Source: a virus. Taken from it: 64,000 bases of DNA. The DNA lies in IMG/VR virus record IMGVR_UViG_2889178456_000001. One strand, written 5' to 3'. Positions 7,788-52,112 of this stretch are shown piece by piece (positions within the stretch are counted from its first letter, which is position 1; the number at the start of each line of letters is the position of its first letter). The notes beneath the pieces are model-generated. The model did not search any database, was not told the DNA's origin, and saw only the letters and a program-made list of their open reading frames with translations. The position numbers were made by a program, and so were the translations under genes.

Positions 7788-9023
7788 TTACGCCCCGTGG
7801 TCGGTTCCCAACCAAGAAACAGGTTTACCCTGCTGCTCTAAGCCCCATCTAAGCATGGTTGCAGCAGCAGCGTGATCTCTTGAGATTACGCTGCCATCTG
7901 GCAGCTCATGCGACCGATCTTGAAGCCTCTTCTTCACAGTGGCGCCCGAAACAGGGCAGCGTTGTGAGGGCTTCAAGGATCGAGTGGGCGCTATAATTAA
8001 CTCACAACCAGCTTCTTCCGCTTTGTATGTGAGGGCTTTCAAAAATGCAGATGGTGATGTGTCGAGAATTTCTCGATTCAAACCAGATTTTTGCGCGACG
8101 TTCCTGCCTGGAGCTTCTTCAGTCCCTTTGGCAGAACGAGTCATATTCGAGACAGTCAGACTTTCTGTCACGATCATCTTGTTATGCTTGACCAATTGCG
8201 ATGTCAGCTGATGAATATGGTTCTTTCGACGATTGGCGAGCTTCCTGTGGCGCTTCGCTAAGACACGCTTATGACGTTGGGCTCGCTTGGATCTTTTACC
8301 TCTTAAAGCCTTCGAAAGGTCGCGTTGAGCGTCTTTCAGATCTTCACTGGACTGCTGCCACAGCCGCTCATTCTTAACCTCTTGAGCCTCGCTACTTTCA
8401 ACACCCCAAGCCAGTGTTGCATATGTCTCAACGCCCCAGTCCAGACCTAAGGCAGGACGAGCATCTGGAGCAATTTCTCGATGTGTTTCACACTCCAGAA
8501 CCACAGACGCCCACCAGCCGTCAGATTTTCTCGTAATCGAGCAGACTTTCGGTCGGCCAGGAGTTCGTGCCTCACCCCTGATCTTGATTGTTCCGACACC
8601 AGATAGGCGCAGTCTACCATGGCGAAAACCCTCACCAGGCTTCAAGGTCCATCCATCGCCGTGACTTTTATAGCCCCATCCGCTAAACCTATCCTTAGAT
8701 TTGAAGCGCGGAAAGCCTGCCTTGCCGCTACCCTTTTTAACCCTGCGAAAGAAATGCTGATATGCTTCATCAACCCGCTTCAGTGTAACTTGCAAGGATT
8801 GAGCATTGATCGACCGATACTCAGGATCATCAGCTCTAATTTGAGTGACAGATTTTTCCTGATCTCCTTTGCGAATGGAAATTTCATGCTTTTTGTAAGC
8901 GTCCATTCGTTCTTGCAGAGCAGCATTATATAGCGCCCTGTGATTATCGTGCAGGCGTTCCAACTGCACGATTTGGGCGCTTGTTGGATACAGCTTGTAT
9001 GTGACGCGTCTTTGGTCCATCAT
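7788..9023 (-). CDS. tnpB: TnpB RNA-guided nuclease
   Basis: RRVTYKLYPT N-terminus, GFPRFKS, RuvC GLDWG / VTESL / SRDHAAA; start set by alignment with copy 2. Confidence 0.93.
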   Translation of the reverse strand: MMDQRRVTYKLYPTSAQIVQLERLHDNHRALYNAALQERMDAYKKHEISIRKGDQEKSVTQIRADDPEYRSINAQSLQVTLKRVDEAYQHFFRRVKKGSGKAGFPRFKSKDRFSGWGYKSHGDGWTLKPGEGFRHGRLRLSGVGTIKIRGEARTPGRPKVCSITRKSDGWWASVVLECETHREIAPDARPALGLDWGVETYATLAWGVESSEAQEVKNERLWQQSSEDLKDAQRDLSKALRGKRSKRAQRHKRVLAKRHRKLANRRKNHIHQLTSQLVKHNKMIVTESLTVSNMTRSAKGTEEAPGRNVAQKSGLNREILDTSPSAFLKALTYKAEEAGCELIIAPTRSLKPSQRCPVSGATVKKRLQDRSHELPDGSVISRDHAAAATMLRWGLEQQGKPVSWLGTDHGA

Positions 9024-9030
9024 CTTAGTT

Positions 9031-9447
9031 ATGTCACCAGAATCCAAATTTTACAAGCTAAATCATAGTATTTACGCACTACACTATCATTTAGTTCTCA
9101 CGACAAAATACCGTCGCAAGGTGATTAACGGACCTATTTTGGCTCGCATCGAACAATTGGTGAGGAGAAGAGCAGAAGATTGGGGTGGCGAGCTTTTGGA
9201 GATGAATGGCGAAGCTGATCATGTGCATTTGCTTTTATCTTTACCACCAACCATGGATTTGACGAAGTTCATCAACAACGTGAAGACCACGTCTTCACGT
9301 GTCATTCGAAATGAATTTTCTGATCATGTGAGTAAGTTTTACTGGAAGTCTGTTTTTTGGTCTCGCACATATTGCCTTGTGAGTTGCGGCGGTGCGCCGC
9401 TTTCCATCATCAAGCAGTATATCAAGAGACAAGATCGGCCAGATTAA
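9031..9447 (+). CDS. tnpA: IS200-type HUH (Y1) transposase
   Basis: HYHLVLTTKYRR, ADHVHLL (HUH), FWSRTY, IKQYI catalytic Tyr. Confidence 0.95.
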   Translation: MSPESKFYKLNHSIYALHYHLVLTTKYRRKVINGPILARIEQLVRRRAEDWGGELLEMNGEADHVHLLLSLPPTMDLTKFINNVKTTSSRVIRNEFSDHVSKFYWKSVFWSRTYCLVSCGGAPLSIIKQYIKRQDRPD

Positions 9448-9671
9448 TCGTTACATAATCCGCCTTCACCACCACCCTGAGGCTGCGCCTCTAGGATGGT
9501 GCACTAGCGTCGGGTCGGTAGATTTTTTATCTGCGGTCATATTCATCACTCCTGTGCACTATGAGTGATGTGGGAGTCATGGTTTAAATTACCGTTTTCC
9601 ATTCATCCAAAATTAGCCACCTTTAATCAAATGGCTGAGCCTCTATAGGCCGTTCCGGATTAGTACTCCGT

Positions 9672-10495
9672 CCTGTAGTAACCACCCAATCTCAAGATGG
9701 CTGCATGGACGCGCAACCTCGTACAATCGCCGCTCCAACCTGTAGTAGCCACCCGAAATCAGGGTAGCTGTAATTGCCTCAAAGCCTCGCGCGGACGCGG
9801 TGCGTCTTTAGTAGCCACCAATAATCGAGATGGCTTCATGAATACTGGATAAACCCGGCTATATTATTCAATCTGTAGTATCCACCATAATGATGGCTGC
9901 ATCTGCGTGCGGTCTTTCCTTAAAAAGGCGATAAACCTGTAGTAACCACTCAATACCTGTGTGGCTGCATATGCGGTCGCGCGAGCGAGGGTTAGCGACG
10001 GTCCCTGTAGTAGCCACCTACATAAGGTGGCTAGATGCCTTTACGATATCGCTCGTAATCATTGCCTTTAATAACCACCCATAGCCAGGATGGCTGCACC
10101 AGTGCGCTGGATGCTTTCTATAATCGACACCTGTAGTAACCACTCAATATCAGTGTGGCTTCATCTTTGCTGTTTGACGATCACACAACGCATGTCCTGT
10201 AGTAACCACTCAATATTAGTGTGGCTGCATCTTCGTTCCGCATGGCGCCATGTGTAACGAGCCTGTAGTAACCACCCAATCCTAGGATGGCTGCATCAAG
10301 GCTCCTGGGTGGCTCAGGAGGCAGTTCCCTGTAGTAACCACTCAATATCAGTGTGGCTGCATCCGAAAGCCAAGGCTCGCCGCGCACCTCACCCCTGTAG
10401 TAACCACTCAATATTAGTGTGGCTGCATCCAGGAGATAAATCATGAGTAAATACATACACCTGTAGTAACCACTCAATATCAGTGTGGCTGCATC
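9672..10495 (-). CRISPR. CRISPR array 1: 13 repeats (32-36 nt) plus a probable degenerate 14th at about 9607-9641; spacers about 27-32 nt
   Basis: Minus-strand repeat GATGCAGCCACACTGATATTGAGTGGTTACTACAGG; + strand starts at 9672, 9739, 9805, 9872, 9936, 10004, 10065, 10130, 10196, 10262, 10328, 10394, 10460 (period about 66); most uniform next to dinG. Confidence 0.96.
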
Positions 10496-10648
10496 CGATA
10501 GTTGCTTATAGCAATGAATTCATTGAAGGAAAAGGTATCCTGACCTACTATTTTTGTGTTTTCCATCAGAATTTGTCGCCATCGTTTTCATTTTTAGGAC
10601 CGAGACCCGACTTTGGTAAAAGCGTAGCACGAATGCGCTGAAAACAGA
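10496..10648 (-). promoter_or_regulatory. AT-rich leader of array 1
   Basis: Non-coding, between the dinG stop and the best-conserved repeat; ends ...ATCG|GATGC, as does the array 2 leader. Confidence 0.6.
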
Positions 10649-12340
10649 TCAGAAAGTCAGCAGAACCTTGGCCTTTTTATTGATCTCTTCTTTTACGCGG
10701 GACTGGAGAGCCTCAATAGAAACGACGTTGTTGCCATCCTTATGAACATAGGCGTGGCAGTTCCGGCAAAGCACAGCGACATCTTCCATCCTGGTTTCGC
10801 CAGCACCACGCAGCGCCAGAGGGTTCAAGTGGTGTACCTCGAGCTGACGAATGTGAAATATCGTGCTGTCGCAGTTACCTTGGCATTTAGTGCCGTGATG
10901 AAGGAGAGCTTCCCGACGCACATGCGGGCTGCGTTCTGCTTTAGTGGTTTGAGAAGATACCTTGCGCCCTTCGTGATAGCCCGTTTTGAATCTATCGGGG
11001 ATAAATTTCGTTCCCAGATCTTCGATACGAGGGTCACAAAACACAACCCGGCAGTAAGCGTCAGGAGAGCGAAGACCCCTGCCCTGCCCCTGGATCAGAC
11101 GACGGATCGCAGCATTCTTGCTATCAGTGTAAGAAGACATGCTTTGGGTCACCATCATGTCAGGCTCATTTTCCAGCCATTCGTCGCCCAGCGCCTTTGG
11201 AGCAGCATAGGGAACCTGAGGGAAAATGATGGTGGTGAACGGCTCGGGCACATCGAGACCGGCCCAAGCGCCAGCAGCGATCAGGATCTTGCTGTTGCCC
11301 ATGCGCTCAGCTGCCTCAGTAGTGGTCTCATCGCGCTCACGCACCACGGCTTCAGGGATCTTTTCGCCGATCTCTTGAGCCAGACGGTGCGAAGGGGTGA
11401 TGACCAGGGTGCGGCCGTCGTTTGCAGCATCCATGGCTTGCTCAACAACAGTATTCATCCACCCTTCAGTGTTGTGGGCATCATCAAGATAGAAGTCATA
11501 GTGAAGGGTGCCGTGCTTCTTCGGAGAAATCATAGTCGAGAGAGGGCTGATGCGATCAATACCCATGGCCCGCTTAAAGTCATTGAAGTTGCCACCAATG
11601 CTGAGGGTAGCTGACATGAACACGGTGCTGGAGCGGTTACTGATCTTCTTGAGGATGCGACCAGGAAGACGGCTGTAGACAGCCAGATCGCCACGAGAGG
11701 TAACACCGCACTTGCGGAACCAGGACGGCTCTTCGGTGAGCCCTTCCAAGGCAAGACGCGCCTTCGCTTTTGTCTCTGCATCGAGACCTTCCTTGGTGAG
11801 CAGAGCGCCCACGATATCCAAGGGTTTGGTTGCTTTGATGTTGAAGGCTTTCAGCTCGTCCCGGGTGATCGTCATTTCAGAGGTTAGGGCTGCGAGATCG
11901 GGCAGCATGTCGGCTTCATCAAACAGGATGGCGTCACGCTCGGTTACCCCATTGTACTGGCCCTTGAGGCGTTGGTCGAAGATCACGGAGCTGGAGGTGC
12001 AGAGCATGATATCTGCGCGCAGACACTGCTCTTTGTTCTCGAGGTATTCAGTTTCGCTATCGAAGAAAGACTTGGGGCGGAAAGCGGCTACTGTGACACG
12101 AGGGTAGATGTCTTGAATGACGGTAAGATCAGAGGAGGCAAGAAGCTGGTCTATGAGAGCGTGGGTGGGGAAGCAGATGGCAATTTTCTGTTCGGAACGG
12201 GCAGCGGCATTCAAGTAAGCGCGCGTCTTGCCGACCCCGGTAGTTGCCTCAATCAGAAGAGGGCCGGTTGGGTTTGCGAGGTGGCTCGATATGCGGTCGT
12301 TGAATTCGGTTTGTTCTTCGGAACGGAAAAGGGTTTTCAT
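10649..12340 (-). CDS. dinG: Type IV-A CasDinG helicase with C-terminal HNH nuclease fusion
   Basis: Walker A EATTGVGKT, FDEAD, MSATL, QGQGRGLR; C-terminal CQGNC...EVHHLNPL...LCRNCHAYVH. Start set at MKTLFRS. Confidence 0.92.
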   Translation of the reverse strand: MKTLFRSEEQTEFNDRISSHLANPTGPLLIEATTGVGKTRAYLNAAARSEQKIAICFPTHALIDQLLASSDLTVIQDIYPRVTVAAFRPKSFFDSETEYLENKEQCLRADIMLCTSSSVIFDQRLKGQYNGVTERDAILFDEADMLPDLAALTSEMTITRDELKAFNIKATKPLDIVGALLTKEGLDAETKAKARLALEGLTEEPSWFRKCGVTSRGDLAVYSRLPGRILKKISNRSSTVFMSATLSIGGNFNDFKRAMGIDRISPLSTMISPKKHGTLHYDFYLDDAHNTEGWMNTVVEQAMDAANDGRTLVITPSHRLAQEIGEKIPEAVVRERDETTTEAAERMGNSKILIAAGAWAGLDVPEPFTTIIFPQVPYAAPKALGDEWLENEPDMMVTQSMSSYTDSKNAAIRRLIQGQGRGLRSPDAYCRVVFCDPRIEDLGTKFIPDRFKTGYHEGRKVSSQTTKAERSPHVRREALLHHGTKCQGNCDSTIFHIRQLEVHHLNPLALRGAGETRMEDVAVLCRNCHAYVHKDGNNVVSIEALQSRVKEEINKKAKVLLTF

Positions 12341-12449
12341 CAAATGTCTCGCGGTATGCAGAAGCAAAAGGCTTCGTCTGTTCTTAAATCTTCCAAGACC
12401 AGCAAGGCTTGGCAAGAACAGTAATAGCAAACTCTAAAACAAAGTAAAG

Positions 12450-12532
12450 TCTATCCTTGATCTATTCATTAATAAAATACGCTATATCAAGGATAGATTT
12501 GGTCTGACGAGATTATCCTTAGTTATCCTTGA
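12450..12532. promoter_or_regulatory. Operator-like repeats upstream of dinG-HNH
   Basis: Perfect 12-bp inverted repeat TCTATCCTTGAT (12450-12461) / ATCAAGGATAGA (12486-12497), plus two more TATCCTT copies at about 12514 and 12524. Confidence 0.5.
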
Positions 12533-12535
12533 ACG

Positions 12536-12570
12536 GAAAGTGCCCCGGAGATTTCTCCCCGAGGCACTTC
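12536..12570 (-). terminator. Probable terminator after csf2
   Basis: Imperfect GC hairpin AAGTGCC...GGCACTT with a short U-tract on the minus strand, about 25 nt after the csf2 stop. Confidence 0.55.
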
Positions 12571-12594
12571 GTTGATCGTTAGTTGGTAGTTGTG

Positions 12595-13569
12595 TTAGGC
12601 GGCGGCCTGCACAACCTCCGAAACCTTGGCAGCATCGAAGTCCGTGGTTTCGATGGTCTCTACGATTTTGCCATCAACTTTGATGGTGGCAACCATTTTC
12701 ACGTGACCACAGCCACGAGCCTGATTGCCGCCCAGCAGCGGGTACTGGCTCAGGGTTTCCAGCCAGGTGCGGATCACGCCAACATCGGTTTCACGCGGAT
12801 TGTCAATGATCAGGAAGCCTTTCCATTCAACACCGGCAGGCAGGGCATAGAAGGAAGCCAGGTTCTTGGAAGAGACCTTCATCCCGCCCATTTCGTCTTC
12901 ATACTTCTTCAACTGAGCCTGAGCGTCAGCCAGAGCCGATTTCAGATCCTTGTTGTCCTTGTCCCTCCACAGCTTGCGCTCGATCTGCGAAACGATAGCG
13001 GCAGCAGCAGAACGCTTCTGGTTCGCAGAAGACCGGGCATAGAAAGCCTGCTGGTTTTCGTCATCCAGCAGATCGACAGCACCTTCGGTATCGTCGATAT
13101 CTTTCTTCACCACACCGAAGGCTTCCGGCAGGACATCGATCTCGGGCATCAGGTTCGACATCTTCAGACGCGATGCCATGTTCAGGCCGCAACCAAACAG
13201 GTCTGCAACGGCATTGATCTCTTTCTGACGCTCAGTGCGAGCATCGGCCAGGTTGATCGTTTCCGCAGCGGTCTCAGATGCAGCATCCTGCCCAGTAATC
13301 GCTTTATAGGCATCTTGCAGAGTGTATGCTTTACCCTCAGCAGCGGCCTTCTCCATCAGCGGGATGGCCATTGCACGGCGGGCGCTGCCACGCAGGGTGG
13401 TTGCTGGGATATAGGCAGTCTGGATCGCCTCACCATCGGCATTCAGGCCACGGGTCATGACGGGAGCACCATCCCACTTGTTTTCGCGCAGGCCCTGCGG
13501 TGTTGGGAGCTTGATGCTCAGCGGGCTCTGGGTGGTCAGGGTCAGGTCGACTTTGATGATCTTTTTCAT
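12595..13569 (-). CDS. csf2: Type IV Cas7-family backbone subunit Csf2
   Basis: RAMP features: LTTQSPLSI, YIPATTLRGSARR, DLFG, Gly loop LGGNQARGCGHV; AAAGGA RBS. Confidence 0.9.
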   Translation of the reverse strand: MKKIIKVDLTLTTQSPLSIKLPTPQGLRENKWDGAPVMTRGLNADGEAIQTAYIPATTLRGSARRAMAIPLMEKAAAEGKAYTLQDAYKAITGQDAASETAAETINLADARTERQKEINAVADLFGCGLNMASRLKMSNLMPEIDVLPEAFGVVKKDIDDTEGAVDLLDDENQQAFYARSSANQKRSAAAAIVSQIERKLWRDKDNKDLKSALADAQAQLKKYEDEMGGMKVSSKNLASFYALPAGVEWKGFLIIDNPRETDVGVIRTWLETLSQYPLLGGNQARGCGHVKMVATIKVDGKIVETIETTDFDAAKVSEVVQAAA

Positions 13570-13595
13570 ATTTTCAGTTCCTTTGTATGAAGTAG

Positions 13596-14090
13596 TTAGA
13601 TTACGATGAGGCCACGGCCGTAGGCCTTGCCAGGAGTGGAGACGCCCTCTCTGAGGACAGCTTTGAAAGCGTCGAGGTCGGTGACCTTCAGAACGCCGGT
13701 GAAGTCGGTTTTGTCCATGCTGAAGCCTTTGCCTTTGGCAATCTTCTCCGGCTCGCTTGACACATGACAGGCGATGATCTCGAAACCATTAGCGCGGCGG
13801 TCGAGCCACTCTTTGCGGGAGCGCCAGTCTTTGGGAGAGAAGTACTTATGCTTGCCCCGAGTTTTCTTGCCGCAGGAAGCCCGCAATTGAAAGGAAACCA
13901 CGTCGCCCTCTTTGATGTCGCGAACAGGCACAGCATTGTTGGTCAGATCGGGGCTCTCGCTCCGCACAACGATATGGTCATCGTTCACAACATGCAGAGC
14001 GCGGCCGCCATCTGTCATTTGCTCAAGAAGCTGGTGAACAGCATACCCATCGATACCAGCGGGTTTGGGGATAAGGTGATCAAACAGCAA
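13596..14090 (-). CDS. cas6: Cas6 crRNA processing endonuclease (Cas6e-like), short
   Basis: FQLRA, EWLDRR, FTGVLKVTDLDAF and terminal G-loop GKAYGRGL; overlaps csf1. Confidence 0.82.
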   Translation of the reverse strand: MLFDHLIPKPAGIDGYAVHQLLEQMTDGGRALHVVNDDHIVVRSESPDLTNNAVPVRDIKEGDVVSFQLRASCGKKTRGKHKYFSPKDWRSRKEWLDRRANGFEIIACHVSSEPEKIAKGKGFSMDKTDFTGVLKVTDLDAFKAVLREGVSTPGKAYGRGLIVI

Positions 14091-14574
14091 CTTTAAGCTC
14101 CTTCTCGGCTTTGATTTTGGCTTTCATCATGCGCTTGTGCATGGGGGTGTTGGCTTCTTCGAACATGTTGAAGGTCTCGGTGTCGCCGGGGGAGCAGATG
14201 CGCATGACCCGGGGATCGTAGCTCAGGTAGATGTTCGAAAGCGGGAATGCGGCATTGGTGAACGTCAGGAAGCACCAAGGCTTCGGCAGTCGATCAATCG
14301 CATAGAGGAATGCCTCATGTGCTTTCATGTCCGGTTCCGTGAGCACATTGTCGTACATGAACTCAGAGTTGGTCATGAAGCCGCCGTTGTAGACCACAAC
14401 CCACGCACCCTTCATGAAGCGCTTGGTTTTCGGGTTCCCTTTGGCATCAACCTTGTCGACCATCGGGTGCGGCATTGAGAGCGCACGCTCGGTCTTTTTA
14501 ACAGGGCAGTTGATCGCAGGATCGATATCGAATTGGCCTGCAAAGTGCTCAGCCAGAAATTCAAAGGTGTTCAT
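14080..14574 (-). CDS. csf1: Probable Csf1 (Cas8-like) subunit, small
   Basis: Translationally coupled between csf3 and cas6; called mainly by position, with weak sequence cues (PKPWCF). Confidence 0.55.
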   Translation of the reverse strand: MNTFEFLAEHFAGQFDIDPAINCPVKKTERALSMPHPMVDKVDAKGNPKTKRFMKGAWVVVYNGGFMTNSEFMYDNVLTEPDMKAHEAFLYAIDRLPKPWCFLTFTNAAFPLSNIYLSYDPRVMRICSPGDTETFNMFEEANTPMHKRMMKAKIKAEKELKVAV

Positions 14575-15197
14575 GCTGCATTCTCCATCGGCATATAGCA
14601 GGCAGCCCGGTTCATGGGGTCGTAATAGCGGGGGCGCCAGGCGGCATCGACAAGAGGAAGATCACGGTTGCCTGCAAACCGATCTTCGGGAACTGGACGC
14701 AATGGATTGCCCTGATCATCCATGATGCCATCGAAATCGCTTTCTTCGATGGACCAGCCGCCTTCAACGATCTGACCGTAGCCCTGCGACCGCTTTTTGC
14801 CGAGGAAGTAAACGTCTTTCAGCAGAGCGTGGATGCCATGCATGTCGCCTTCGCAGTGCCAGCTGACCGTCGCAGTCGTAAAGGTCGGATAGGTGTGAAA
14901 GACGTTACCGCAGCCCTTACGACGCTGGATATCATACATCTTGTGGGTGCCACCGTTCTTGTTCTTCTTGATGAGATCGGGGTCCAAACGGTGTTGGCCA
15001 TGCAGACCGGCAATGAAGCCGACCTTGCCATGAATGGGGGTCTCAAGAATGGCGCTCGATGCGTGAAAGAGACCATCAGTCTGCTTCAGAGGGATGTCAG
15101 GATCGCCCTTGAGGCACATAAGGAGAGCGTCAAAGGTCATCTCTCCTTGCTTGATGAGCGGCGAGGCAAGCTGCGCCGTGATCTTGAGTTTGTGCAT
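14571..15197 (-). CDS. csf3: Type IV Cas5-family subunit Csf3
   Basis: LKITAQLASPL, TFDALL, FLGKKRSQGYGQI, RPVP, WRPRYY; start shares the GGAACTGA upstream motif with csf2. Confidence 0.87.
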   Translation of the reverse strand: MHKLKITAQLASPLIKQGEMTFDALLMCLKGDPDIPLKQTDGLFHASSAILETPIHGKVGFIAGLHGQHRLDPDLIKKNKNGGTHKMYDIQRRKGCGNVFHTYPTFTTATVSWHCEGDMHGIHALLKDVYFLGKKRSQGYGQIVEGGWSIEESDFDGIMDDQGNPLRPVPEDRFAGNRDLPLVDAAWRPRYYDPMNRAACYMPMENAA

Positions 15198-15932: not shown

Positions 15933-15999
15933 TCAGGTATCGTTAATCTCTATTTAACTGCCCCCAGATAATGTGCGCGAGCTCTTCAAGAGGATTGAT

Positions 16000-17691
16000 A
16001 TGGCTCGCGCACCTAAAATTACCGGCTCCCCATTACAGTTGAAGTTACCCGCGTCGACCCTCTGGATCGTCGGTATATTCAGTCTTGCAGTGAACATGCT
16101 CCTGCTGGCCGGTCCCATCTATATGCTTCAGGTCTACGACAGAGTGCTTGGAAGCCGCTCAGAGGCCACCTTGGTGGCTCTCACGGCTATTTTGGTTGCC
16201 CTCTATGGGTTCATGGCATCATTCGACTACATTCGCGGCCGTCTGCTAGCTCGCATGAGCGCACAGATGCAACAAAAGCTAGATCCAGCGATCTTTCGAT
16301 CTGATCTTTTGGATTCCATCGGAGACCGAACGGGCCCCAAAGACATCGAGATGGTCCAGAAGATGCTTTCCTCTCCGGTGTTCGTGGCTTTCTTCGATCT
16401 TCCTTGGACACCCGTATTTCTGGCTGGCATCGCAATCTTCCATCCGGCGCTGGGCGTGCTTGCCCTAGTAGGTGGTGCCATCATTGTCGCGCTCTCTGTT
16501 CTGAACCAAGCCTCCTCACAAAGCGCAGCAATGGCTCAGATGACCGCATCTTCTAAAGCAAATATGATTGCCATGCAGTCGATCAGATCCTCAGAAGACA
16601 TTCAGGCGCTGGGCATGCGCGGTAGTGTGGCGGCTCGCTGGACGAAGTTCCGTGAAGAAGCCTTGGCCGAAAATATGAAATCAGGTGATCGTCAAGGAGG
16701 ATTCCTGTCAACAACCAAAGCTCTCCGGCTGTTCTTGCAATCTGCCATGCTTGGTTTGGGCGCCTATCTGGTACTCTTGGGAGAGCTGACACCCGGTGCC
16801 ATGATTGCTGGCTCCATTCTTCTTGGCCGTGCTCTCCAGCCTGTAGAGCAAATTATGGGTCAGTGGCAAAACGTACAGCAAGCACGCACGGCTTGGACCA
16901 ACATCAAGTCAAAGCTCAGCGCCCTGCCTGTCGAGACCCCAAAGACTGACATTTCGAAGCCCACTGGGCAACTTAAGGTGGCGAGCATGACCATTGTGCC
17001 ACCTGGCAATGTCAAAGCCACCTTGGCGATGATAGATTTCGAGATCCCTGCTGGCACTGCGCTGGGCGTCATCGGCACATCAGGATCAGGGAAATCAACT
17101 CTGGCTCGTGCAATCACAGGCGTTTGGAAACCTGCTGGAGGCCGCATTAGTATGGATGGATGGCCCATTAATCACTTTGATGGCGACGTCCTCGGCCGCC
17201 ATATCGGGTACCTATCACAACAGGTGGTTCTTTTTGACGGTACGATTGCTCAGAATATCGCACGCATGGAGGAAGACCCGGATCCTGAAGCTGTTTTGGA
17301 AGCCGCCAGGAAGGCAGGCGCCACGGATCTCATCCAGTCCCTGCCGCAAGGGTTCGACACCCCTATTACAAGCACATCTACAGCGCTTTCTGGCGGCCAG
17401 ATGCAAAGGATTGCGCTTGCCCGGGCCCTTTATGGAAACCCGTCCATACTGGTTCTGGATGAACCCAACTCCAATTTAGATCAGGCCGGTATCGTTGCTC
17501 TAAACAAGGCAGTCGCCGAAACCAAGAAGGCAGGAGGCTCCATCATAATTATGGCTCACCGACCTTCGGCAATTGAGGAGTGCGACCTTCTTCTAGTGCT
17601 CGACAAGGGGCGTAAGACCGCCTTTGGGCCTCGAGATGAGGTACTCAAGAGCGTGCTGAAATCAGCACCACGGACACAGGGATCTGCGTGA
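16000..17691 (+). CDS. prtD: Type I secretion ABC transporter (PrtD family)
   Basis: MLQVYDRVL, Walker A GTSGSGKST, LSGGQ signature, LVLDEP. Confidence 0.92.
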   Translation: MARAPKITGSPLQLKLPASTLWIVGIFSLAVNMLLLAGPIYMLQVYDRVLGSRSEATLVALTAILVALYGFMASFDYIRGRLLARMSAQMQQKLDPAIFRSDLLDSIGDRTGPKDIEMVQKMLSSPVFVAFFDLPWTPVFLAGIAIFHPALGVLALVGGAIIVALSVLNQASSQSAAMAQMTASSKANMIAMQSIRSSEDIQALGMRGSVAARWTKFREEALAENMKSGDRQGGFLSTTKALRLFLQSAMLGLGAYLVLLGELTPGAMIAGSILLGRALQPVEQIMGQWQNVQQARTAWTNIKSKLSALPVETPKTDISKPTGQLKVASMTIVPPGNVKATLAMIDFEIPAGTALGVIGTSGSGKSTLARAITGVWKPAGGRISMDGWPINHFDGDVLGRHIGYLSQQVVLFDGTIAQNIARMEEDPDPEAVLEAARKAGATDLIQSLPQGFDTPITSTSTALSGGQMQRIALARALYGNPSILVLDEPNSNLDQAGIVALNKAVAETKKAGGSIIIMAHRPSAIEECDLLLVLDKGRKTAFGPRDEVLKSVLKSAPRTQGSA

Positions 17692-18980
17692 TGCAAAAAT
17701 ATGGACAACGAAAACTCATTCTTACCGGAGTCTTCCTGCTTGCCGCTTTGGTCGCCGTTATGGGCGGATGGGCTGGTACGGCACAGATCAGTGGCGCAAT
17801 CATCGCTCCCGGCAGAGTTCAGGTCGACGACAATCGGGTAATCGTACAGCACCTAGATGGGGGAGTGATCGAAACTCTTCATGTGGATGAAGGTGACCTC
17901 GTGGAACAAGGCCAGCTGCTGCTGACCCTCGACCCGGCCGAACTGCGCTCCCAGTACAATATTATTGAAAGCAAGCTGAACGAAATCACAGCACGCCGTG
18001 CCAGGCTTGAGGCCGAACGCGATAATATGAATACGCTTTCCTTTGATCCCATGTTGGAGCTGAAGGCCGACCGACAAGAGGTTAAAGAGCTGATGGATGG
18101 CCAGCAAAGGCTTTTTGAAGCCCGTAATGTATCTCTGAAAACCGAACGCGAGCAACTCGGTCGCCGTCAAAAACAGATCGAGGAGCAGATCATTGGCATT
18201 GAGGCCCAACAGGATGCGATGAGTGAGCAGCTGGAACTGCTTAAAGGTGAATTGGACAACCAACAGACACTGTTGGATCGGGGGCTCGCTCAATCATCAA
18301 GGGTGACTTCCCTTAGAAGGGAGCAATCTCGTCTGCGTGGATCTCTCGGGGAGCTACAAGCTTCGAAGGCGCAAGCTAGTGGCCGTATCATCGAACTGGG
18401 TATCGAAATTGAGAAGCTTGATACATCCCGGCGCGAGAGGGCTGTCACCGAACTTAGAGATCAGCAATACAGAGAGCTTGAACTGCTGGAGCAAGAGCGG
18501 GTTCTGCGGATGCAGCTGGGTCGCCAGCATGTAACAGCACCCGTAAATGGGGTGGTCTATAATATGGCGCCGGTGAACCCTGGTGCGGTTCTGCGACCTG
18601 CGGACCCCCTGCTCTACTTGGTTCCCCAAAACCGTCCGATGGTGGTTGCAGCCGAGATCGAGGCCAAGGACATCCACCGTATCGCCTTCAATCAGGAAGT
18701 CCTGGTGCGGTTTTCATCCTTGGATCAGAAGAATGCCCCAGAAGTCACCGGGAGCGTCATAAAAATATCTGCGGATGCTTTCCAGGTGGAGAACCGGGCA
18801 CCATTCTACAAAGTAGAGATTGAGCTATCTCCTGAGCAACTGGCTGAAGCCATCAAGAACGTGGATCTGATCCCGGGCATGCCTGTTGAGGCCTTCATTC
18901 AGACGGGGGCGAGGACACCACTCGCGTACCTCACAGAGCCTTTGACGGATTACTTCATGGCTGCCTTCCGAGAAGGGTAA
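17688..18980 (+). CDS. prtE: Type I secretion membrane fusion protein (HlyD/PrtE family)
   Basis: VQHLDGGVI, coiled coil, VTAPVNGVV, LIPGMPVEAFI; overlaps the prtD stop. Confidence 0.92.
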   Translation: MMQKYGQRKLILTGVFLLAALVAVMGGWAGTAQISGAIIAPGRVQVDDNRVIVQHLDGGVIETLHVDEGDLVEQGQLLLTLDPAELRSQYNIIESKLNEITARRARLEAERDNMNTLSFDPMLELKADRQEVKELMDGQQRLFEARNVSLKTEREQLGRRQKQIEEQIIGIEAQQDAMSEQLELLKGELDNQQTLLDRGLAQSSRVTSLRREQSRLRGSLGELQASKAQASGRIIELGIEIEKLDTSRRERAVTELRDQQYRELELLEQERVLRMQLGRQHVTAPVNGVVYNMAPVNPGAVLRPADPLLYLVPQNRPMVVAAEIEAKDIHRIAFNQEVLVRFSSLDQKNAPEVTGSVIKISADAFQVENRAPFYKVEIELSPEQLAEAIKNVDLIPGMPVEAFIQTGARTPLAYLTEPLTDYFMAAFREG

Positions 18981-19533: not shown

Positions 19534-20769
19534 TTACGCCCCGTGGTCGGTTCCCAACCAAGAAACAGGCATACCCTGCTGCTCTAAACCCCATCTAAGC
19601 ATAGTTGCAGCCGCAGCGTGATCTCTTGAGATTACGCTGCCATCTGGCAGCTCATGCGACCGATCCTGAAGCCTCTTCTTCACAGTGGCGCCCGAAACTG
19701 GGCAGCGTTGTGAAGGCTTCAAGGATCGCGTGGGCGCGATAATTAACTCACAACCAGCTTCTTCCGCTTTGTATGTGAGTGCTTTCAAAAACGCAGATGG
19801 CGATGTATCGAGAATTTCTCTGTTCAAGCCAGCCTTCTGCGCGACGTTCTTACCAGGTGCTTCTTCTGTGCCTTTGACAGAACGAGTCATATTCGAGACA
19901 GTCAGTTCTTCTGTCACGATCATCTTGTTTTCTCTCACCAGCTTATTGCTCAGCTGATGGATGTGGTTTTTTCGACGATTTGCCAGCTGTCTGTGGCGCT
20001 TCGCCAAGATGCGCTTGTGGCGCAACGCTCGCTTAGATCTTTTACCTCTCAAAGCCTTTGAGAGGTGTCGCTGAGCGTCTTTCAGATCGTCACTCGCCTG
20101 CTGCCACAGTCGCTCGTTCTTAAATTCTTGGGCATCGCTGCTGTCGACACCCCAAGCCAATGTAGCGTATGTCTCAACGCCCCAGTCCAGACCTGCGGCA
20201 GGACGAGCATCTGGAGCTACTTCACGATGCGCCTCACATTCCAGAACCACTGACGCCCACCAGCCGTCAGATTTCCTCGTAATCGAGCAGACTTTCGGTC
20301 GGCCAGGCGTTCGCGCCTCGCCTCTAATCTTGATTGTTCCGACACCGGATAAGCGCAGTCTGCCATGGCGGAAACCTTCGCCGGGCTTCAAGGTCCATCC
20401 ATCGCCGTGGCTTTTATATCCCCAACCGCTAAATCTATCCTTTGATTTGAAGCGTGGAAATCCTGCCTTGCCACTAACCTTTTTAACCCTGCGAAAGAAA
20501 TACTGATATGCGTCATCAACTCGCTTCAGCGTCACTTGCAAGGATTGAGCATTGATCGACCGATACTCAGTATCATCCGCTCTAATCTGAGTGACAGATT
20601 TTTCCTGATCTCCTTTACGAATGGAAATTTTATGCTTTTTGTAAGCGTCCATTCGTTCTTGCAGGGCAGCATTATATAGCGCCCTGTGATTATCGTGAAG
20701 GCGTTCTAGTTGCACGATTTGGGCGCTTGTTGGATACAGCTTGTATGTGACGCGTCTTTTGTCCATCAT
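19534..20769 (-). CDS. tnpB: TnpB RNA-guided nuclease
   Basis: Close homologue of copy 1; RuvC D/E/D intact (GLDWG, VTEEL, RDHAAA). Confidence 0.93.
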   Translation of the reverse strand: MMDKRRVTYKLYPTSAQIVQLERLHDNHRALYNAALQERMDAYKKHKISIRKGDQEKSVTQIRADDTEYRSINAQSLQVTLKRVDDAYQYFFRRVKKVSGKAGFPRFKSKDRFSGWGYKSHGDGWTLKPGEGFRHGRLRLSGVGTIKIRGEARTPGRPKVCSITRKSDGWWASVVLECEAHREVAPDARPAAGLDWGVETYATLAWGVDSSDAQEFKNERLWQQASDDLKDAQRHLSKALRGKRSKRALRHKRILAKRHRQLANRRKNHIHQLSNKLVRENKMIVTEELTVSNMTRSVKGTEEAPGKNVAQKAGLNREILDTSPSAFLKALTYKAEEAGCELIIAPTRSLKPSQRCPVSGATVKKRLQDRSHELPDGSVISRDHAAAATMLRWGLEQQGMPVSWLGTDHGA

Positions 20770-21846: not shown

Positions 21847-22326
21847 ATGGCCAATATTGATAGAGTTCTACAGAACCGTTTTCACCTTCTTTATAAGAAA
21901 TCAGTCGAAAAACTCGGAAAAGATTATCTTGAGGCATGGGCGGATGCGCTACATGAGTACAATGACGTTATTGAAAATTCTTTGGACCGTAGTTGCTATG
22001 ATTGGTTCGTATCAAATACCGTTTTGCGTCAGCTTTCAAAAGAAGAGCGTGAGGAGATTCTAGGACGGGATTGGGAATCCATTAAATTCCAGCTTAGCGA
22101 CCTTTGTGGTGGCGCCGATGCGATGTATCGTGAGGTCATGGTACCAGTTGGAACAGACGCCGACCTTGATGACACTGATGCGCTGGTGCGCGACATCGTG
22201 ATACCAGAAGGCTCAAACCCTATTGCCATCCTTGATTGCGAAGATGGCTCCTCGGTAGAAGTTTCGTTGGATGAAATCTTGGCGCAGGTCAGAGACAGTA
22301 CATTCATGTATGGCAGTTTAGGATAA
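21847..22326 (+). CDS. Hypothetical acidic protein
   Basis: 159 aa ORF with AAGGAA RBS. Confidence 0.6.
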   Translation: MANIDRVLQNRFHLLYKKSVEKLGKDYLEAWADALHEYNDVIENSLDRSCYDWFVSNTVLRQLSKEEREEILGRDWESIKFQLSDLCGGADAMYREVMVPVGTDADLDDTDALVRDIVIPEGSNPIAILDCEDGSSVEVSLDEILAQVRDSTFMYGSLG

Positions 22327-22473
22327 AAACCTCGATGCCAAACAAACGATCACACTATGAGGTAAATATATAGGCTTTCACCTAGAATTATCTTGAATGA
22401 GATATCTATATGTGTAGTGTGCGATTATTCTTGCGGATCAACAATAATAGATGGAAAGAAATGGATTAGATAG

Positions 22474-23175
22474 ATGACACCCCTACCCGCTGTACACCGC
22501 AGCAAGCCAGTAAACCTGGACCACTACCGTACCCTTGTTTTGAACGCCAACGCGCTTCCTCTCTCAACGACACCTTTGTCGCTATGGGGTTGGAAGGATG
22601 CAGTCGAGGCAGTCTACAAAAAACGTGTGCAGGTTCTAGAAAACTGGGATGGACCGGTAATTCGCTCGCAAAAGATGAGCATTCCGGTTCCGAAGGTCGT
22701 AATGTGCCACGAGTTCGTACCTGTCGCAAAGAAGGGCATCCCTGCCCTGTCGCGCTTGAACTGTGCTCTGCGTGATGCCTTCACCTGCGGATACTGCGGT
22801 AATAGGTTTGCTGTCAAAGATCTGACTTTCGATCACGTGGTTCCACGCTCCAAGGGCGGCCTGTCCACCTGGGATAACCTTATGATGTCTTGCCGTAAGT
22901 GCAACTGCATGAAGGGCAGCGAACCGGCGAACTACAACGGTATCCGTGGCGTCGTGCGCAAAGGTAACTTCGTGCCATTGTGGAAGCCTCGCACCCCCAG
23001 CTGGGATGAGCTCTACAAGATCGGTCTGCGCAACGTGCCTGCTGAGGTGCGAGGTGTCTTCGGTAACTGGCTCCCAGAGGCCAAAGGAGGCCGTCCAGCG
23101 CCTCTAGGTATGCGGGTCGATGCGACCCAAGGCTGGGATGACGACGGTTACTGGACTGCCGAACTAGAGCCATGA
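22474..23175 (+). CDS. HNH endonuclease (McrA-like)
   Basis: TLVLNA, RDAFTCGYCG, TFDHVVPRSKGG, WDNLMMSCRKCNCMKG. Confidence 0.9.
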   Translation: MTPLPAVHRSKPVNLDHYRTLVLNANALPLSTTPLSLWGWKDAVEAVYKKRVQVLENWDGPVIRSQKMSIPVPKVVMCHEFVPVAKKGIPALSRLNCALRDAFTCGYCGNRFAVKDLTFDHVVPRSKGGLSTWDNLMMSCRKCNCMKGSEPANYNGIRGVVRKGNFVPLWKPRTPSWDELYKIGLRNVPAEVRGVFGNWLPEAKGGRPAPLGMRVDATQGWDDDGYWTAELEP

Positions 23176-23227
23176 AAATCATGTCCTGTCCCAGAAGGGG
23201 CAGGACATCCGCCAGTGAGTAAAAAAT

Positions 23228-23734
23228 ATGACTATAAAAGCCATCAATCGATCCCTTAAAAATAGCGCCTTCAACGAGATGGATCACGCCCTCGGCCGTC
23301 CGGTAAACCCGCTGACAAGTAGCTATAGAAACTTCTTCTGTGTTGGGTTTGACAGCCCCAGAGGAAAAGAGATGGACGCTTCTCCATATTGGGATCGAGT
23401 AAGCTCATCGGATGGATCGGTCACCGGGTTCACTGTCAATGAAGACGGGCGCCAAGCCCTGAGCGACCATCTCATTGAGATCGGCGACAAGCATAAAGTC
23501 TATGATATCCACTTAAACGCCAGAAAGCTGGGCTTGGATCCAGACCCGGATAACCGCCCTATTCAAGTGATTGCAGAGACAAAGTCGAAGGCCAAAGCCG
23601 CAGTGTGGCGCGAGATTTCCGATGTGTTTGAGGATATCACCTTCAAAGACCTCATGCAGGCAATTACTTCGGTTGATGTGGCCATAGAGAATGGGATGGA
23701 ACCCGAGGCGCCTGCTCCGGCACCGGCGCCTTAA
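23228..23734 (+). CDS. Hypothetical protein with Ala/Pro tail
   Basis: 168 aa ORF ending EPEAPAPAPAP. Confidence 0.65.
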   Translation: MTIKAINRSLKNSAFNEMDHALGRPVNPLTSSYRNFFCVGFDSPRGKEMDASPYWDRVSSSDGSVTGFTVNEDGRQALSDHLIEIGDKHKVYDIHLNARKLGLDPDPDNRPIQVIAETKSKAKAAVWREISDVFEDITFKDLMQAITSVDVAIENGMEPEAPAPAPAP

Positions 23735-23833
23735 TAGAACACATCAATATCTAAACGAATTACAGATCACTTAATGCTTGTCATCATTAGGTATATGCTT
23801 TATTAATCTTGTAAATGTATTGCTTATCTGGAG

Positions 23834-24259
23834 ATGATTATGCGTTTTTTGACAAATGATGAGAGAGAAATCCTTCTCAAGCTGAATACCGTCAACAAAG
23901 ACGCTATGTACTTCCGGGAAGACAGTGAGAAGGAAGCAATTCTTAGCCTCTGCGAACTCCGACTGTTGTGCGATCCTCACCAAGAAGACGATACTTCCGC
24001 TTACCTGACGAAGATCACCGACAAGGGCGTAAAAGTGGCCAAGCTCGGAGGGTATCTATCCAGTCCGCATTTTGCTGAAATCGACATGGTGCACTACAAA
24101 TGGGCTGCTGATGCTGGTCGTGAAAGCCGCGACGCCACCGCAAGCTTTGAAGATTACTCTGAGGCTGCAAAAGTTATCGTAGCGATGAATGCAAAAATTA
24201 AGCAGCTAGAAAAACAGGTCTCTGTAGCGAAACGTAATGCGGAGAAATCCCATGCCTGA
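23834..24259 (+). CDS. Hypothetical protein
   Basis: GGAG RBS; overlaps the next gene. Confidence 0.6.
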   Translation: MIMRFLTNDEREILLKLNTVNKDAMYFREDSEKEAILSLCELRLLCDPHQEDDTSAYLTKITDKGVKVAKLGGYLSSPHFAEIDMVHYKWAADAGRESRDATASFEDYSEAAKVIVAMNAKIKQLEKQVSVAKRNAEKSHA

Positions 24260-24758
24260 GAGCAAGTGCCCAACATGTGGTCACGAACCCGATGGTGCTG
24301 TAGCCTCCACAGGCTCCAATTCAGATCGCTATCTGGACATGCGGATCCCCGAGCATCACTGGCCGGTCTTCAAAATGATGTTCCGACAGATGAACACCAA
24401 GTTTGGAATGATGGGGCTCGGGGATTTCGCAAACCTGCTACCGGGATATGAAGACAAGCTTCCGCTGGACCAATCCAAACTGCGCTATGTCGATGATGTC
24501 ACCTTTGCCTACGCGCTTCTCGCGATGGAACGCGGGTATCGCATTGAAACGGTAATCGAGCCTGGTGGGCGTGCTGACTATAACGGTGTTGAACGTGTGA
24601 AAGTGCATGCCGAACTCACGCATCCAGACAAAGAGAAGCCTATTCATCTGACGATTTCAGATTGCGCCTATGAAGATGCAGCTAAATACATCTGCGAATA
24701 TCTGGAAGAAGCTAGCGAAAGATATGCACCTTTGGATGATCCGCAAACCGGACTCTGA
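24252..24758 (+). CDS. Hypothetical protein with N-terminal CPTCG
   Basis: ATG after GGAGA; coupled to the previous ORF. Confidence 0.6.
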   Translation: MPESKCPTCGHEPDGAVASTGSNSDRYLDMRIPEHHWPVFKMMFRQMNTKFGMMGLGDFANLLPGYEDKLPLDQSKLRYVDDVTFAYALLAMERGYRIETVIEPGGRADYNGVERVKVHAELTHPDKEKPIHLTISDCAYEDAAKYICEYLEEASERYAPLDDPQTGL

Positions 24759-24850
24759 ACCGGCACGAAGACATTAAGATTGCATCGGAAGTGTATGATT
24801 TCCGGTAAAAATATATATTAGGGAACCGGACATTTAACCGGCACAAAATT

Positions 24851-25483
24851 ATGAGCAAGAAGTACGGGCGCACATATCATCTACCAGGCTCACCTGGTGC
24901 CACGAGTGATGACAAGATTCTCAAGTCCCTGTCTGCTTTCGAGCAGGACGGCGGCGTTGATGTGGTGGCTACCGAAAAAATGGATGGCGAAAACACCACT
25001 ATTTATGACGGTGGCACCCATGCGCGGAGTGTCGACGGACGCTATCACCCCTCTCGGGATCGCATGAAGGCCTTCGCAGCGGGCATCTCCCCTATGTTGG
25101 CGGCCAATGAGCGCATTGTGGGCGAGTACCTCTATGCGAAGCACTCCATTGCCTATGATGGGCTGCCTCACTTCTTCATGGGGTTTGCCTGGATCAAAGA
25201 TGAGGTGATCCAATCCTGGGATGATACCATGCAGCGGTTTAGTGAGCTTGGCATCGTGCCGGTTCCGGTTCTCTGGCGCGGAAAGTTTGATATCCGTCAG
25301 ATTGATGCGCTTGTCAGCGGACTGGATCTTGAACAGCAAGAAGGCTTCGTTGTCCGGGTGATGGATGCTTTCCATGAGGACCAAATGGTAACCTCCATGG
25401 GCAAGTATGTCCGCGAAGGTCATGTTCAGACGGAAACTCACTGGATGCATCAAGAGATCATCCCAAACACATTCAAGATGTGA
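24851..25483 (+). CDS. ATP-dependent RNA ligase family protein
   Basis: KYGRTYHLP, motif I TEKMDGEN, GEYL, motif IV EGFVVR, KYVR. Confidence 0.85.
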   Translation: MSKKYGRTYHLPGSPGATSDDKILKSLSAFEQDGGVDVVATEKMDGENTTIYDGGTHARSVDGRYHPSRDRMKAFAAGISPMLAANERIVGEYLYAKHSIAYDGLPHFFMGFAWIKDEVIQSWDDTMQRFSELGIVPVPVLWRGKFDIRQIDALVSGLDLEQQEGFVVRVMDAFHEDQMVTSMGKYVREGHVQTETHWMHQEIIPNTFKM

Positions 25484-25501
25484 GCTGATAAGGATAGTAA
25501 G

Positions 25502-26062
25502 ATGTTAGATTGTCATGACCTGGATGGCGAGTGGCTCGCAACCGTTACAGGTGGGTTCAGAACCCGTGGCAAGACCATGGATGAAGCAGTGCGCAAAATG
25601 CGTGACTTCCTGCAAGACGAGCGCCCCGAAGTCTATGAAGCCCATATGGATGCACTCGAAACCTACTCGCATCCTATGGAACCATCTGGGACTGTTATGG
25701 ACCTAGTGAAGATGATCAAGGAGCGGCATCGCAAAGAGGCCCACGAGGAACTGTGCGAGATTTCAAAATCGATTGATGAGCAGGTCGCGATCAACGATAC
25801 TGAAGCCCTCAGTAAGCTGACAGGCCTGAACCTCGACCAAGGCAAGGCGATTACTAAGCTTCAGGCTGAGGACTTTACCCTCAATAAGGTGGACGAAGTG
25901 ATTGCCGAAAATGGGATCGTAAATGATTTATTGGATGCTATTGCGCTGCACCTAACGGAAGTTACGGCTGCACCAGAAAAATATAATATCGACTACAAGC
26001 AGGAGATCTCGCTGATCTACGAAGACCTCGAGGAATACCTGCCGCCGGAACCAAAGTTCTAG
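25502..26062 (+). CDS. Hypothetical protein
   Basis: 186 aa ORF, AAGGA RBS. Confidence 0.6.
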   Translation: MLDCHDLDGEWLATVTGGFRTRGKTMDEAVRKMRDFLQDERPEVYEAHMDALETYSHPMEPSGTVMDLVKMIKERHRKEAHEELCEISKSIDEQVAINDTEALSKLTGLNLDQGKAITKLQAEDFTLNKVDEVIAENGIVNDLLDAIALHLTEVTAAPEKYNIDYKQEISLIYEDLEEYLPPEPKF

Positions 26063-26122
26063 CGGACCACCCCCCAGGTGCCATTGGCGCTCTGGCTACT
26101 AATATTATGAAAGGATAAGATC

Positions 26123-26512
26123 GTGAACGTAACTGATTATTTGGCTTCCCTGAAAGAGCATCGCGAAACCGCATACAATAGCCTTTGTCACACATCGGAG
26201 ATGTTCAGTGAAAAAGTAGCGGCGGGTGATGCCGTGTCTATGAGCATGCTCCATCACCTTCATGTCGAACAAGGTAAGGGAGTCTGGAAGATTAAGGCTC
26301 AAGATCTAGTGATTGAAAAAGCAAACGACGTGATCTCAAAAGGTGGATCCATGTCTGATCTAGAGAAGAAGATGTCCATGCTCCTGAAAGATGTTGTATG
26401 CTCACCGGATGGATTTGATCCCGAGTACATGAAGGAGATTGCGTGGATTTGCCGTGAGCTCGAAGAATTTCTGGACTCCGAAACCTTACCACTTCTCCGG
26501 TCCAGATTTTGA
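26123..26512 (+). CDS. Hypothetical protein
   Basis: 129 aa ORF, AAAGGA RBS. Confidence 0.55.
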   Translation: MNVTDYLASLKEHRETAYNSLCHTSEMFSEKVAAGDAVSMSMLHHLHVEQGKGVWKIKAQDLVIEKANDVISKGGSMSDLEKKMSMLLKDVVCSPDGFDPEYMKEIAWICRELEEFLDSETLPLLRSRF

Positions 26513-26571
26513 CACGTAATCTCGGTAAGAAGATAAACTCACAGAACGTGCAATAAGAGGGAGCGAAGCCG

Positions 26572-26769
26572 ATGATAGCAAATGTACGCCGTGGAGCAAC
26601 AATTGAGCGAGTCGAATATCACATCACAGTAAACCGATTGCCGGGCAGTGATGCGGGCGTGGTCGCTTACAATTGGCGCAGCGGCAAGCTGTCTGTTGCA
26701 GACGGGACATCGCAGCACATGAACGTACATGCGGCAATTAATGGTCTGCGTGAAACGAACAATTCATAA
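26572..26769 (+). CDS. Small hypothetical protein
   Basis: 65 aa ORF after GAGGGAG. Confidence 0.45.
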   Translation: MIANVRRGATIERVEYHITVNRLPGSDAGVVAYNWRSGKLSVADGTSQHMNVHAAINGLRETNNS

Positions 26770-27228
26770 ATGAGTGAGAGGCATGATGTGGCGCGTCAAG
26801 AAGTGGTATTTGCAGAGGCTGGCGGATGAAGCCCGAAGAATGTCTAGGGCGCACTACAATATCGCTCGCAATGCTTTAAGCGACCATGAAGCAAAAAAGG
26901 AGGGTTGGAGTGTCTGATATATTGAAAAGAGATTGGGATCGCCTCATGGCTTGCCCTTGGGGTGATTGTCCATGGCGGCAGTGCCCTTGGAGCCAGTGTC
27001 CATGGAAAGATGACGAGGGAACTATGCGGTCTCTCTGAGGCCCTCAACGACGACATCTCCGCAGGTCGCACGGCGAACCTGACCTCTTATCCGCCCAAGC
27101 TCGGCCGGGTGATCGAAATTATGAAAGACCAGGATTTCGTTATCAAGCTTGCGAAGAACTGCAATGATCCCGAGTACTTTGCTTGGGTTGACGGTATATA
27201 GCCATCATGACAAACAAGGAAGCCTCCG

Positions 27229-28116: not shown

Positions 28117-28153
28117 TTCAAAGCCAAAATGAAGACTTATTTCGAATAAGTCT

Positions 28154-28675: not shown

Positions 28676-28730
28676 CCGCTTGAAGTGTGCAGATTTCGCT
28701 CGCATCTAGCCAGAGAACAAAGAAGGATAT

Positions 28731-40666: not shown

Positions 40667-40797
40667 TGCGCTCCATGAATAGAATAACTGGTGACGAAAT
40701 TTATCCTTGAGGTCTTCGCTCGATCCTTTTAGAAAGGTCACAAGCAAGGAGACTGGTACTTATAAAAGGGAGATCGAGAGGTTCTTAAGCTGATGAT

Positions 40798-51943: not shown

Positions 51944-52112
51944 GTGCGCCCTTTCTCTGGTTATAGCCAAAAAGGTAGCACATACTCATTTATGAAATAG
52001 TTACGGCTCGGGAATAACGAATGGGGTGGAGAAGACAAAAAGGTCCCCGATCAATTAAGTTCGGGGGCCTTTTTGTGAGTTAATCTCAAATAATATTAAG
52101 CGAGACTTATTA

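Follow-up and report, generated by a model that had tools for sequence, protein, structure and literature searches.

The canonical type IV-A CRISPR (clustered and regularly interspaced short palindromic repeats) systems, IV-A1 and IV-A3, act without a nuclease (PMC12669027, PMC11519345). A variant in which the DinG helicase carries an HNH nuclease domain was characterised experimentally in Sulfitobacter sp. JL08 by Altae-Tran et al., Science 2023 (PMC10910872). In that system, interference needs all five components, HNH mutants lose interference, the purified system yields a cleavage ladder, and library depletion gives a protospacer-adjacent motif (PAM) of 5'-YCN. Among type IV CRISPR systems, target cutting has been shown only for DinG-HNH, of which a single orthologue has been characterised. 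The variant has been reviewed as 'CasDinG-HNH', with the order cas5, cas8, cas6, cas7, array, dinG-HNH (PMC11981726), and the 2025 CRISPR classification (Makarova et al. 2025) names it IV-A2 (PMC12669027); this label is ambiguous, since some earlier papers apply it to Csf1-less IV-A systems. A locus of the same kind is found at positions 10,649-15,197 of a 64,000-nucleotide (nt) stretch of the IMG/VR virus record IMGVR_UViG_2889178456_000001, the whole of which is called the window here. With high confidence, it represents a CRISPR-Cas system of a type IV-A variant (IV-A2 in the 2025 classification) that is intact and has CasDinG-HNH as its effector. Judged by sequence comparison, it is an orthologue of the JL08 system and so belongs to a kind already published and classified, the understanding of which it leaves unchanged. 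What is new here are a Csf1 fold that lacks a zinc finger, a CRISPR array placed after dinG, two extra arrays, heterogeneous repeats, and probable targets on Sulfitobacter plasmids with a YCN motif beside them.

The best named relative of the window DinG-HNH protein is hypothetical protein C1J05_04080 of Sulfitobacter sp. JL08, with 51% identity over 562 aligned residues (99% coverage, E = 0). The JL08 locus (L001) has the same gene order and the same gene overlaps as the window, and all five proteins have a counterpart in it: Csf3/Cas5 (213 residues in JL08, 208 in the window, 46% identity), the Csf1-like/Cas8-like protein (160 and 164 residues, 26%), Cas6 (162 and 164 residues, 52%), Csf2/Cas7 (326 and 324 residues, 39%) and DinG-HNH itself (557 and 563 residues, 51%). 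In a maximum-likelihood tree of 90 homologues, the window protein falls with JL08 in a 24-member clade whose support in the Shimodaira-Hasegawa-like approximate likelihood ratio test (SH-aLRT) is 100. A first-pass annotation of the window had assigned the locus to type IV-A, with DinG fused to HNH, had called this rare rather than unprecedented with reference to Altae-Tran et al., and had proposed a phylogeny against the published DinG-HNH proteins; the identity to JL08, the synteny of the two loci and their shared clade all agree with that description. Matches to all five proteins occur in 18 other genomes, 16 of which have this gene order. Relatives of DinG-HNH form about 94 protein clusters (90% identity) in a collection of 5.8 billion proteins, and are present in 39 of 185,579 species-representative genomes, drawn from the Alpha-, Beta- and Gammaproteobacteria and mostly aquatic. 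The DinG-HNH system is rare; the family is nonetheless populated.

The effector genes are five densely packed open reading frames (ORFs), all on the minus strand, which the ORF list with its translations gives in the order csf3, csf1-like, cas6, csf2 and dinG-HNH. The csf3/cas5 gene (14571-15197, 208 amino acids) is read from Met13 of an ORF that extends to 15233, because the JL08 orthologue begins at the same position; its product matches the Csf3 family (TIGR03116, E 4e-7 in an NCBIfam scan) and the PDB Csf3 chain 7xfz_B (E 1.5e-4). The trimmed csf1/cas8-like gene (14080-14574, 164 amino acids) overlaps csf3 by 4 nt, and is itself overlapped by 11 nt, exactly as in the JL08 locus, by cas6 (13596-14090, TTG start), which encodes a compact CasE-like CRISPR RNA (crRNA) endonuclease, likewise of 164 amino acids (PF08798, E 5.8e-14; PDB Cse3/CasE chains, E about 2e-3). 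Next comes csf2/cas7 (12595-13569), coding for the 324-residue backbone subunit (TIGR03115, E 3e-12; RAMPs, PF03787; PDB Csf2 chain 8rc3_A, E 1e-3). The last gene, casDinG-HNH (10649-12340), encodes a protein of 563 amino acids that Pfam, orthology and the tree identify as a superfamily 2 DinG-type helicase with a C-terminal HNH nuclease. Its ORF spans 10649-12430 from a TTG codon, but translation really begins at the ATG at 12340, because all homologues start there and none supports the longer reading.

This layout is the csf3-csf1-cas6-csf2 operon followed by dinG that the first-pass annotation had described, with all five ORFs in place, and the family models uphold its names for Csf3, Cas6, Csf2 and DinG. 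The genes of its inventory were right; the CRISPR array directly after dinG had been left out. The length of 164 amino acids given for both the putative Csf1 and Cas6 is also correct, but small size does not distinguish the locus as had been supposed: the two proteins have 160 and 162 amino acids in JL08, and about 20 other loci are alike. Unusual compactness was rejected on this ground, since the published system has subunits of nearly the same size, and compactness is a family trait rather than a feature of this locus.

The nuclease is what sets the variant apart, and in the window protein both halves of the fusion appear complete. Pfam finds DEAD, Helicase_C_2, ResIII and HNH (PF01844), the last scoring 26.7 bits where the cut-off is 21.4. 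The helicase motifs are intact, as first annotated, with a Walker A GVGKT at residues 35-39 and DEAD at 141-144, and the HNH motifs are HH at 503-504, CRNCH at 525-529 and H533. The HNH core (residues 486-533; 10742-10885, minus strand), delimited by PF01844, alignment and a domain model, contains the zinc cysteines C486, C490, C525 and C528 and the catalytic residues H504, D520 and H529, which are invariant or nearly so when 20 homologues are aligned. Folding the C-terminal 112 residues with 19 homologues gave a model with a predicted local distance difference test (pLDDT) score of 82.5, which matches EcoKMcrA (E 3e-4), the Cas5-HNH Cascade, ScoMcrA, Cap5 and the HNH domains of Cas9 and IscB. 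The HNH fold that had been proposed from motifs is thus seen in the model, and the same structural neighbours are reported for the JL08 protein in review (PMC11981726). The family scans found no HD domain of the kind carried by Cas3 nucleases, and the cas3_core match to DinG-HNH is a weak helicase-motif match (E 3e-4, 20 bits, the cut-off being 102). In one member of the DinG-HNH family, P0087, the HH and CxxCH motifs are lost and the helicase is kept; it may be a natural HNH-dead variant.

It could be argued that the window system works in the ordinary type IV-A mode, the helicase silencing transcription while the HNH domain serves a structural role or nicks only. Canonical IV-A1 and IV-A3 do without a nuclease, and the loss of the HH motif in P0087 means that not every member of the family needs HNH activity. 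Such a mode is nevertheless extremely unlikely for this locus, given that the HNH mutants of its 51%-identical JL08 orthologue lose interference and that the purified JL08 system produces a cleavage ladder. The residues that matter there are intact here: in the alignment, JL08 D139/E140 correspond to D141/E142 and JL08 H497/D514/H523 to H504/D520/H529, all of them positions whose mutation in JL08 abolished interference (PMC10910872). Like the HNH residues, D141/E142 vary little or not at all among the 20 homologues.

The subunit that sequence searches fail to recognise is the 164-residue Csf1-like protein. It has no Pfam or NCBIfam match, its 17 orthologues have no NCBIfam match at E <= 10, the Csf1 model TIGR03114 has no match in three genomes that carry the gene, and a profile of the 17 orthologues finds nothing among PDB sequences beyond one chance match. 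An AlphaFold model folded with the 17 syntenic orthologues has a pLDDT of 94 and a predicted template modelling (pTM) score of 0.88. When this model was compared with 48,161 PDB chains in an exhaustive VIA structure search, the top match was 8rc2_G (Z 8.8, 149 residues aligned, root-mean-square deviation 3.6) and the second 7xfz_A (Z 4.9), both of them chains of type IV-A effectors, with all other chains at Z 2.4 or lower. Foldseek concurs on a Csf1 fold with a probability of 0.99, but short of its E 1e-3 line. Chains 7xfz_A and 8rc3_G are Csf1 by deposition, and the canonical Csf1 of another locus (L042; TIGR03114, E 9e-19) matches both by sequence; 8rc2_G, which bears the same chain letter as its sister entry, would then be Csf1 as well. 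Canonical type IV-A Cas8 uses a zinc finger at the PAM (PMC11519345). The window protein has C23, C101 and C127 as its only cysteines, without a CxxC pair or an N-terminal zinc finger; C127 is the only cysteine invariant across the 17 orthologues, and in length the protein falls short of the solved Csf1 chains by about 80-100 residues. At the level of modelled fold and operon position, it is a trimmed Csf1/Cas8-like subunit, and the earlier label of 'putative Csf1' is right in this sense, given the two structural matches and the synteny with JL08.

Three CRISPR arrays of one repeat family accompany these genes. Array 1 (9615-10495) shares the minus strand with dinG, which it directly follows, and consists of 13 repeats of 36 nt and a degenerate terminal repeat, with 13 spacers of about 30 nt. 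Its leader (10496-10648, minus strand) occupies the interval between the dinG stop codon and the first, best-conserved repeat, and can in part be aligned with that of array 2. Array 2 (35675-36762, plus strand, 17 repeats) and array 3 (40798-41355, plus strand, 9 repeats) are 20-30 kb from the cas locus. The array 1 repeat forms a hairpin followed by an 8-nt handle, ACUACAGG; the JL08 repeat is homologous, with a hairpin and then the handle ACUA(A/C)AGG, and the period is 66 nt in both. A borrowed class 2 adaptation module was considered as an explanation of the 36/30 geometry and is unnecessary, since the 66-nt period is universal in the family. Over the three arrays, 37 of the 39 repeats are distinct, with a mean pairwise identity of 0.65-0.71. 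Their 8-bp stem is nonetheless paired in 93.6% of cells across the 39 repeats, whereas sliding the pairing partner by 1-3 columns gives 24-53%, and the 8-nt handle is nearly invariant: the Cas6 hairpin and handle are retained despite repeat drift. The last repeat of arrays 2 and 3 has lost the handle.

The spacers point to plasmids. When the three arrays were compared with 72,556 plasmids by BLAST, four independent spacers, with all three arrays represented, match Sulfitobacter plasmids only (E 3e-4 to 9e-2). The array 1 match is to S. indolifex pDSM14862_g (E 6e-3). One spacer of array 2 matches two S. indolifex plasmids and one S. faviae plasmid (E 3e-2) and another matches a plasmid of Sulfitobacter sp. 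W027 (E 9e-2), while the array 3 match is to a different W027 plasmid (31/32, E 3e-4). The spacers of arrays 1 and 2 had no match among 50,697 phage records. When the protospacers are aligned in register with the repeat end and the motif is read on the crRNA-like strand, every 5' motif is YCN: CCC, TCC (twice, for one spacer), CCA and CCA. The 5'-YCN background in the matched plasmid regions is 0.129, so that its presence at four of four independent spacers has a p of about 3e-4, and it lends independent support to the PAM determined in the laboratory for JL08. The two spacers that match W027 plasmids (L045 and L046) do so in or next to the same two genes, one for an AAA family ATPase and the hypothetical gene beside it, a hint that they target a module common to these plasmids.

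The genome context agrees with such targets. A type I secretion ABC/HlyD pair (15973-18980, plus strand) adjoins the cas operon, and the best named relatives of its ABC protein are from Rhodobacterales (Roseobacteraceae/Paracoccaceae genera, 54-58% identity), which fits a Roseobacter-group host meeting Sulfitobacter plasmids. The window has a GC content of about 50%, and the host is a marine Rhodobacterales bacterium. Going by these spacer matches, the natural targets are likely to be plasmids of Sulfitobacter and related Roseobacteraceae. The main text of Altae-Tran 2023 names no natural targets (PMC10910872), and the matches are apparently the first in-silico hint of what DinG-HNH systems meet in nature, namely Roseobacter-group plasmids.

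Several points weigh against an intact and working system: (i) the repeats are very heterogeneous, with the lowest identity among about 30 arrays of the family, (ii) the array sits downstream of dinG and not in its usual place, which is between csf2 and dinG in nearly all of the 21 loci with a detected array, the downstream position being that of the window and of one other locus (L034), (iii) no Cas1 was found among the 24 large window ORFs scanned, so the arrays may be old, (iv) the single spacer matches have 1-3 mismatches and modest E-values, and (v) the Csf1 assignment is drawn only from fold and synteny, the Csf1 hidden Markov model finding nothing. The first three, together with the TnpB/IS605-type elements in the window, would fit a decaying relic, in which the cas genes are still open and the arrays no longer work, leaving the locus inert or able only to bind DNA. 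What makes a relic very unlikely is that the five ORFs are full length compared with their orthologues and keep every catalytic residue, that the repeat stem and handle have been kept while the sequence around them drifted, and that the spacers still find matches, with the right PAM adjoining, on plasmids from relatives of the host. The missing cas1 is normal for the family, because a search for Cas1 (PF01867) in five other genomes that carry a DinG-HNH system gave no match anywhere in four of them; these are G002 (L002), G001 (L009), G003 (L018) and G404 (L023), two of the four being titled complete genomes. An intact system therefore remains the preferred reading.

Between csf2 and dinG there is a gap of 254 bp, and its contents differ from those of the JL08 gap. 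A GC-rich hairpin of 14 bp lies 3' of csf2 (12538-12569, minus strand), with a folding free energy of -28.6 kcal/mol and a z of -4.5; none of 200 shuffles folds as well. The uridine tract after it is weak, and a scan of the locus for sigma-70 and terminator consensus sequences gave no excess over shuffles and nothing usable in the gap. Of the terminator that had been annotated here, the strong hairpin is real, while the weak uridine tract and the consensus scan give no terminator call; the hairpin is possibly a terminator or an attenuator. Upstream of dinG-HNH there are also three exact copies of TCAAGGATA (12452-12532, two on the minus strand and one inverted on the plus strand), so that three of the six matches in the window fall inside these 81 bp, where 0.76 would be expected for the whole window. 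From this clustering, the copies are a candidate operator or regulator-binding site, and dinG-HNH is a candidate separate transcription unit under such an operator, an arrangement particular to the window locus. A further copy of TCAAGGATA is found at 40702-40710, about 90 bp upstream of array 3.

The same gap and strong hairpin, by separating dinG-HNH from csf2, could be taken to mean that the gene encodes a helicase-nuclease of its own, for repair or defence, whose place beside a type IV effector operon is incidental. This is barely conceivable, since some 20 genomes from the Alpha-, Beta- and Gammaproteobacteria retain the neighbourhood, with an array between or beside the genes, and all five components are needed for interference in JL08 (PMC10910872). 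DinG-HNH is best regarded as the effector nuclease of the CRISPR system.

The mechanism that follows from this assignment would begin with the transcripts of the arrays, which the CasE-like Cas6 would cut at the foot of each repeat hairpin. The resulting crRNAs would consist of a 30-nt spacer with an 8-nt handle on its 5' side and a hairpin on its 3' side. Csf3 (Cas5), the trimmed Csf1 (Cas8-like), several copies of Csf2 (Cas7) and Cas6 would then assemble on the crRNA. The effector complex would locate a 5'-YCN PAM and open an R-loop, and CasDinG-HNH would load on the displaced non-target strand and translocate 5'->3' with ATP. As the helicase moves, its HNH domain would cut both strands, and the target would be shredded rather than silenced. 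For the window locus, all of these biochemical steps are inferred, by orthology, from the JL08 experiments and from the type IV-A structures.

A more ambitious interpretation is that the locus is a hard-wired and long-lived anti-plasmid weapon, with about 36 guides in three arrays and without Cas1-Cas2. The repeats would have drifted while the hairpin and handle stayed under selection, and the nuclease gene would have been uncoupled from the effector operon by the hairpin and the TCAAGGATA operator, and be co-transcribed with array 1. As a whole this is speculative and rather doubtful. If it is true, spacers would turn over by a route other than Cas1-Cas2, for example by repeat-spacer units recombining with one another, and target binding and shredding would each have a gate of their own.

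The surroundings of the locus look like an accessory island. ORFs for RNA-guided nucleases of the TnpB/IS605 OrfB type were found by scan at 7788-9047 and 19534-20769 (both minus strand), one of them directly beyond array 1; for a further ORF at 46973-48172 (plus strand), the TnpB label comes from the first-pass annotation only. An 874-residue subtilase with repeats-in-toxin (RTX) sequences (49346-51970, minus strand), 30 kb away, is likely a substrate of the type I secretion pair. Small ORFs follow one another on the plus strand at 21847-29165, among them genes for an HNH endonuclease that stands alone (22474-23175) and for an RNA ligase (24851-25483); this run may be what is left of a phage, or a defence island.

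As a second orthologue that is intact, with 51% identity and about 36 natural spacers, the locus provides comparative material for structural work on DinG-HNH systems. At about 4.6 kb and 1,423 amino acids, it is also material for engineering a compact class 1 DNA-shredding tool.

The JL08 system is the closest of the known systems, and shares with the window its gene set and order, its catalytic residues, a homologous 36-nt repeat, 30-nt spacers and the 5'-YCN motif, which for the window is deduced here from the protospacers. The two differ in the position of the array, which in JL08 lies between cas7 and dinG-HNH and in the window follows dinG-HNH, the cas7-dinG gap of the window holding a hairpin and TCAAGGATA repeats in place of the array. 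The window also has two further arrays at 20-30 kb and far more heterogeneous repeats, and its host belongs to a different Rhodobacterales lineage. The canonical IV-A1 and IV-A3 systems of P. aeruginosa, P. oleovorans and K. pneumoniae (PDB 7XFZ, 8RC3, 8RC2) have in common with it the Csf2 and Csf3 families, a small Csf1/Cas8 of like core fold, a recruited DinG-type helicase and, usually, the lack of adaptation genes. In contrast with the window protein and its HNH domain, their CasDinG has no nuclease and brings about transcriptional interference; their Csf1 has 240-263 amino acids and an N-terminal zinc finger, whereas that of the window has 164 and no CxxC pairs, and the window DinG lacks their long N-terminal domain. 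In working logic, the window system resembles type I Cascade with Cas3, where a crRNA-guided R-loop is followed by a recruited helicase-nuclease that shreds DNA directionally. Here, however, the helicase is of the DinG/XPD type and, by analogy, would move 5'->3' on the non-target strand, unlike Cas3; the nuclease is HNH and not HD, and there is no Cas11. The I-E2 (Cas5-HNH) and I-F4 (Cas8-HNH) systems have likewise recruited an HNH domain into a class 1 effector. Their HNH domain belongs to one of the Cascade subunits and, with no helicase involved, makes its cut at a fixed site, whereas that of the window system is carried along by a translocating helicase.

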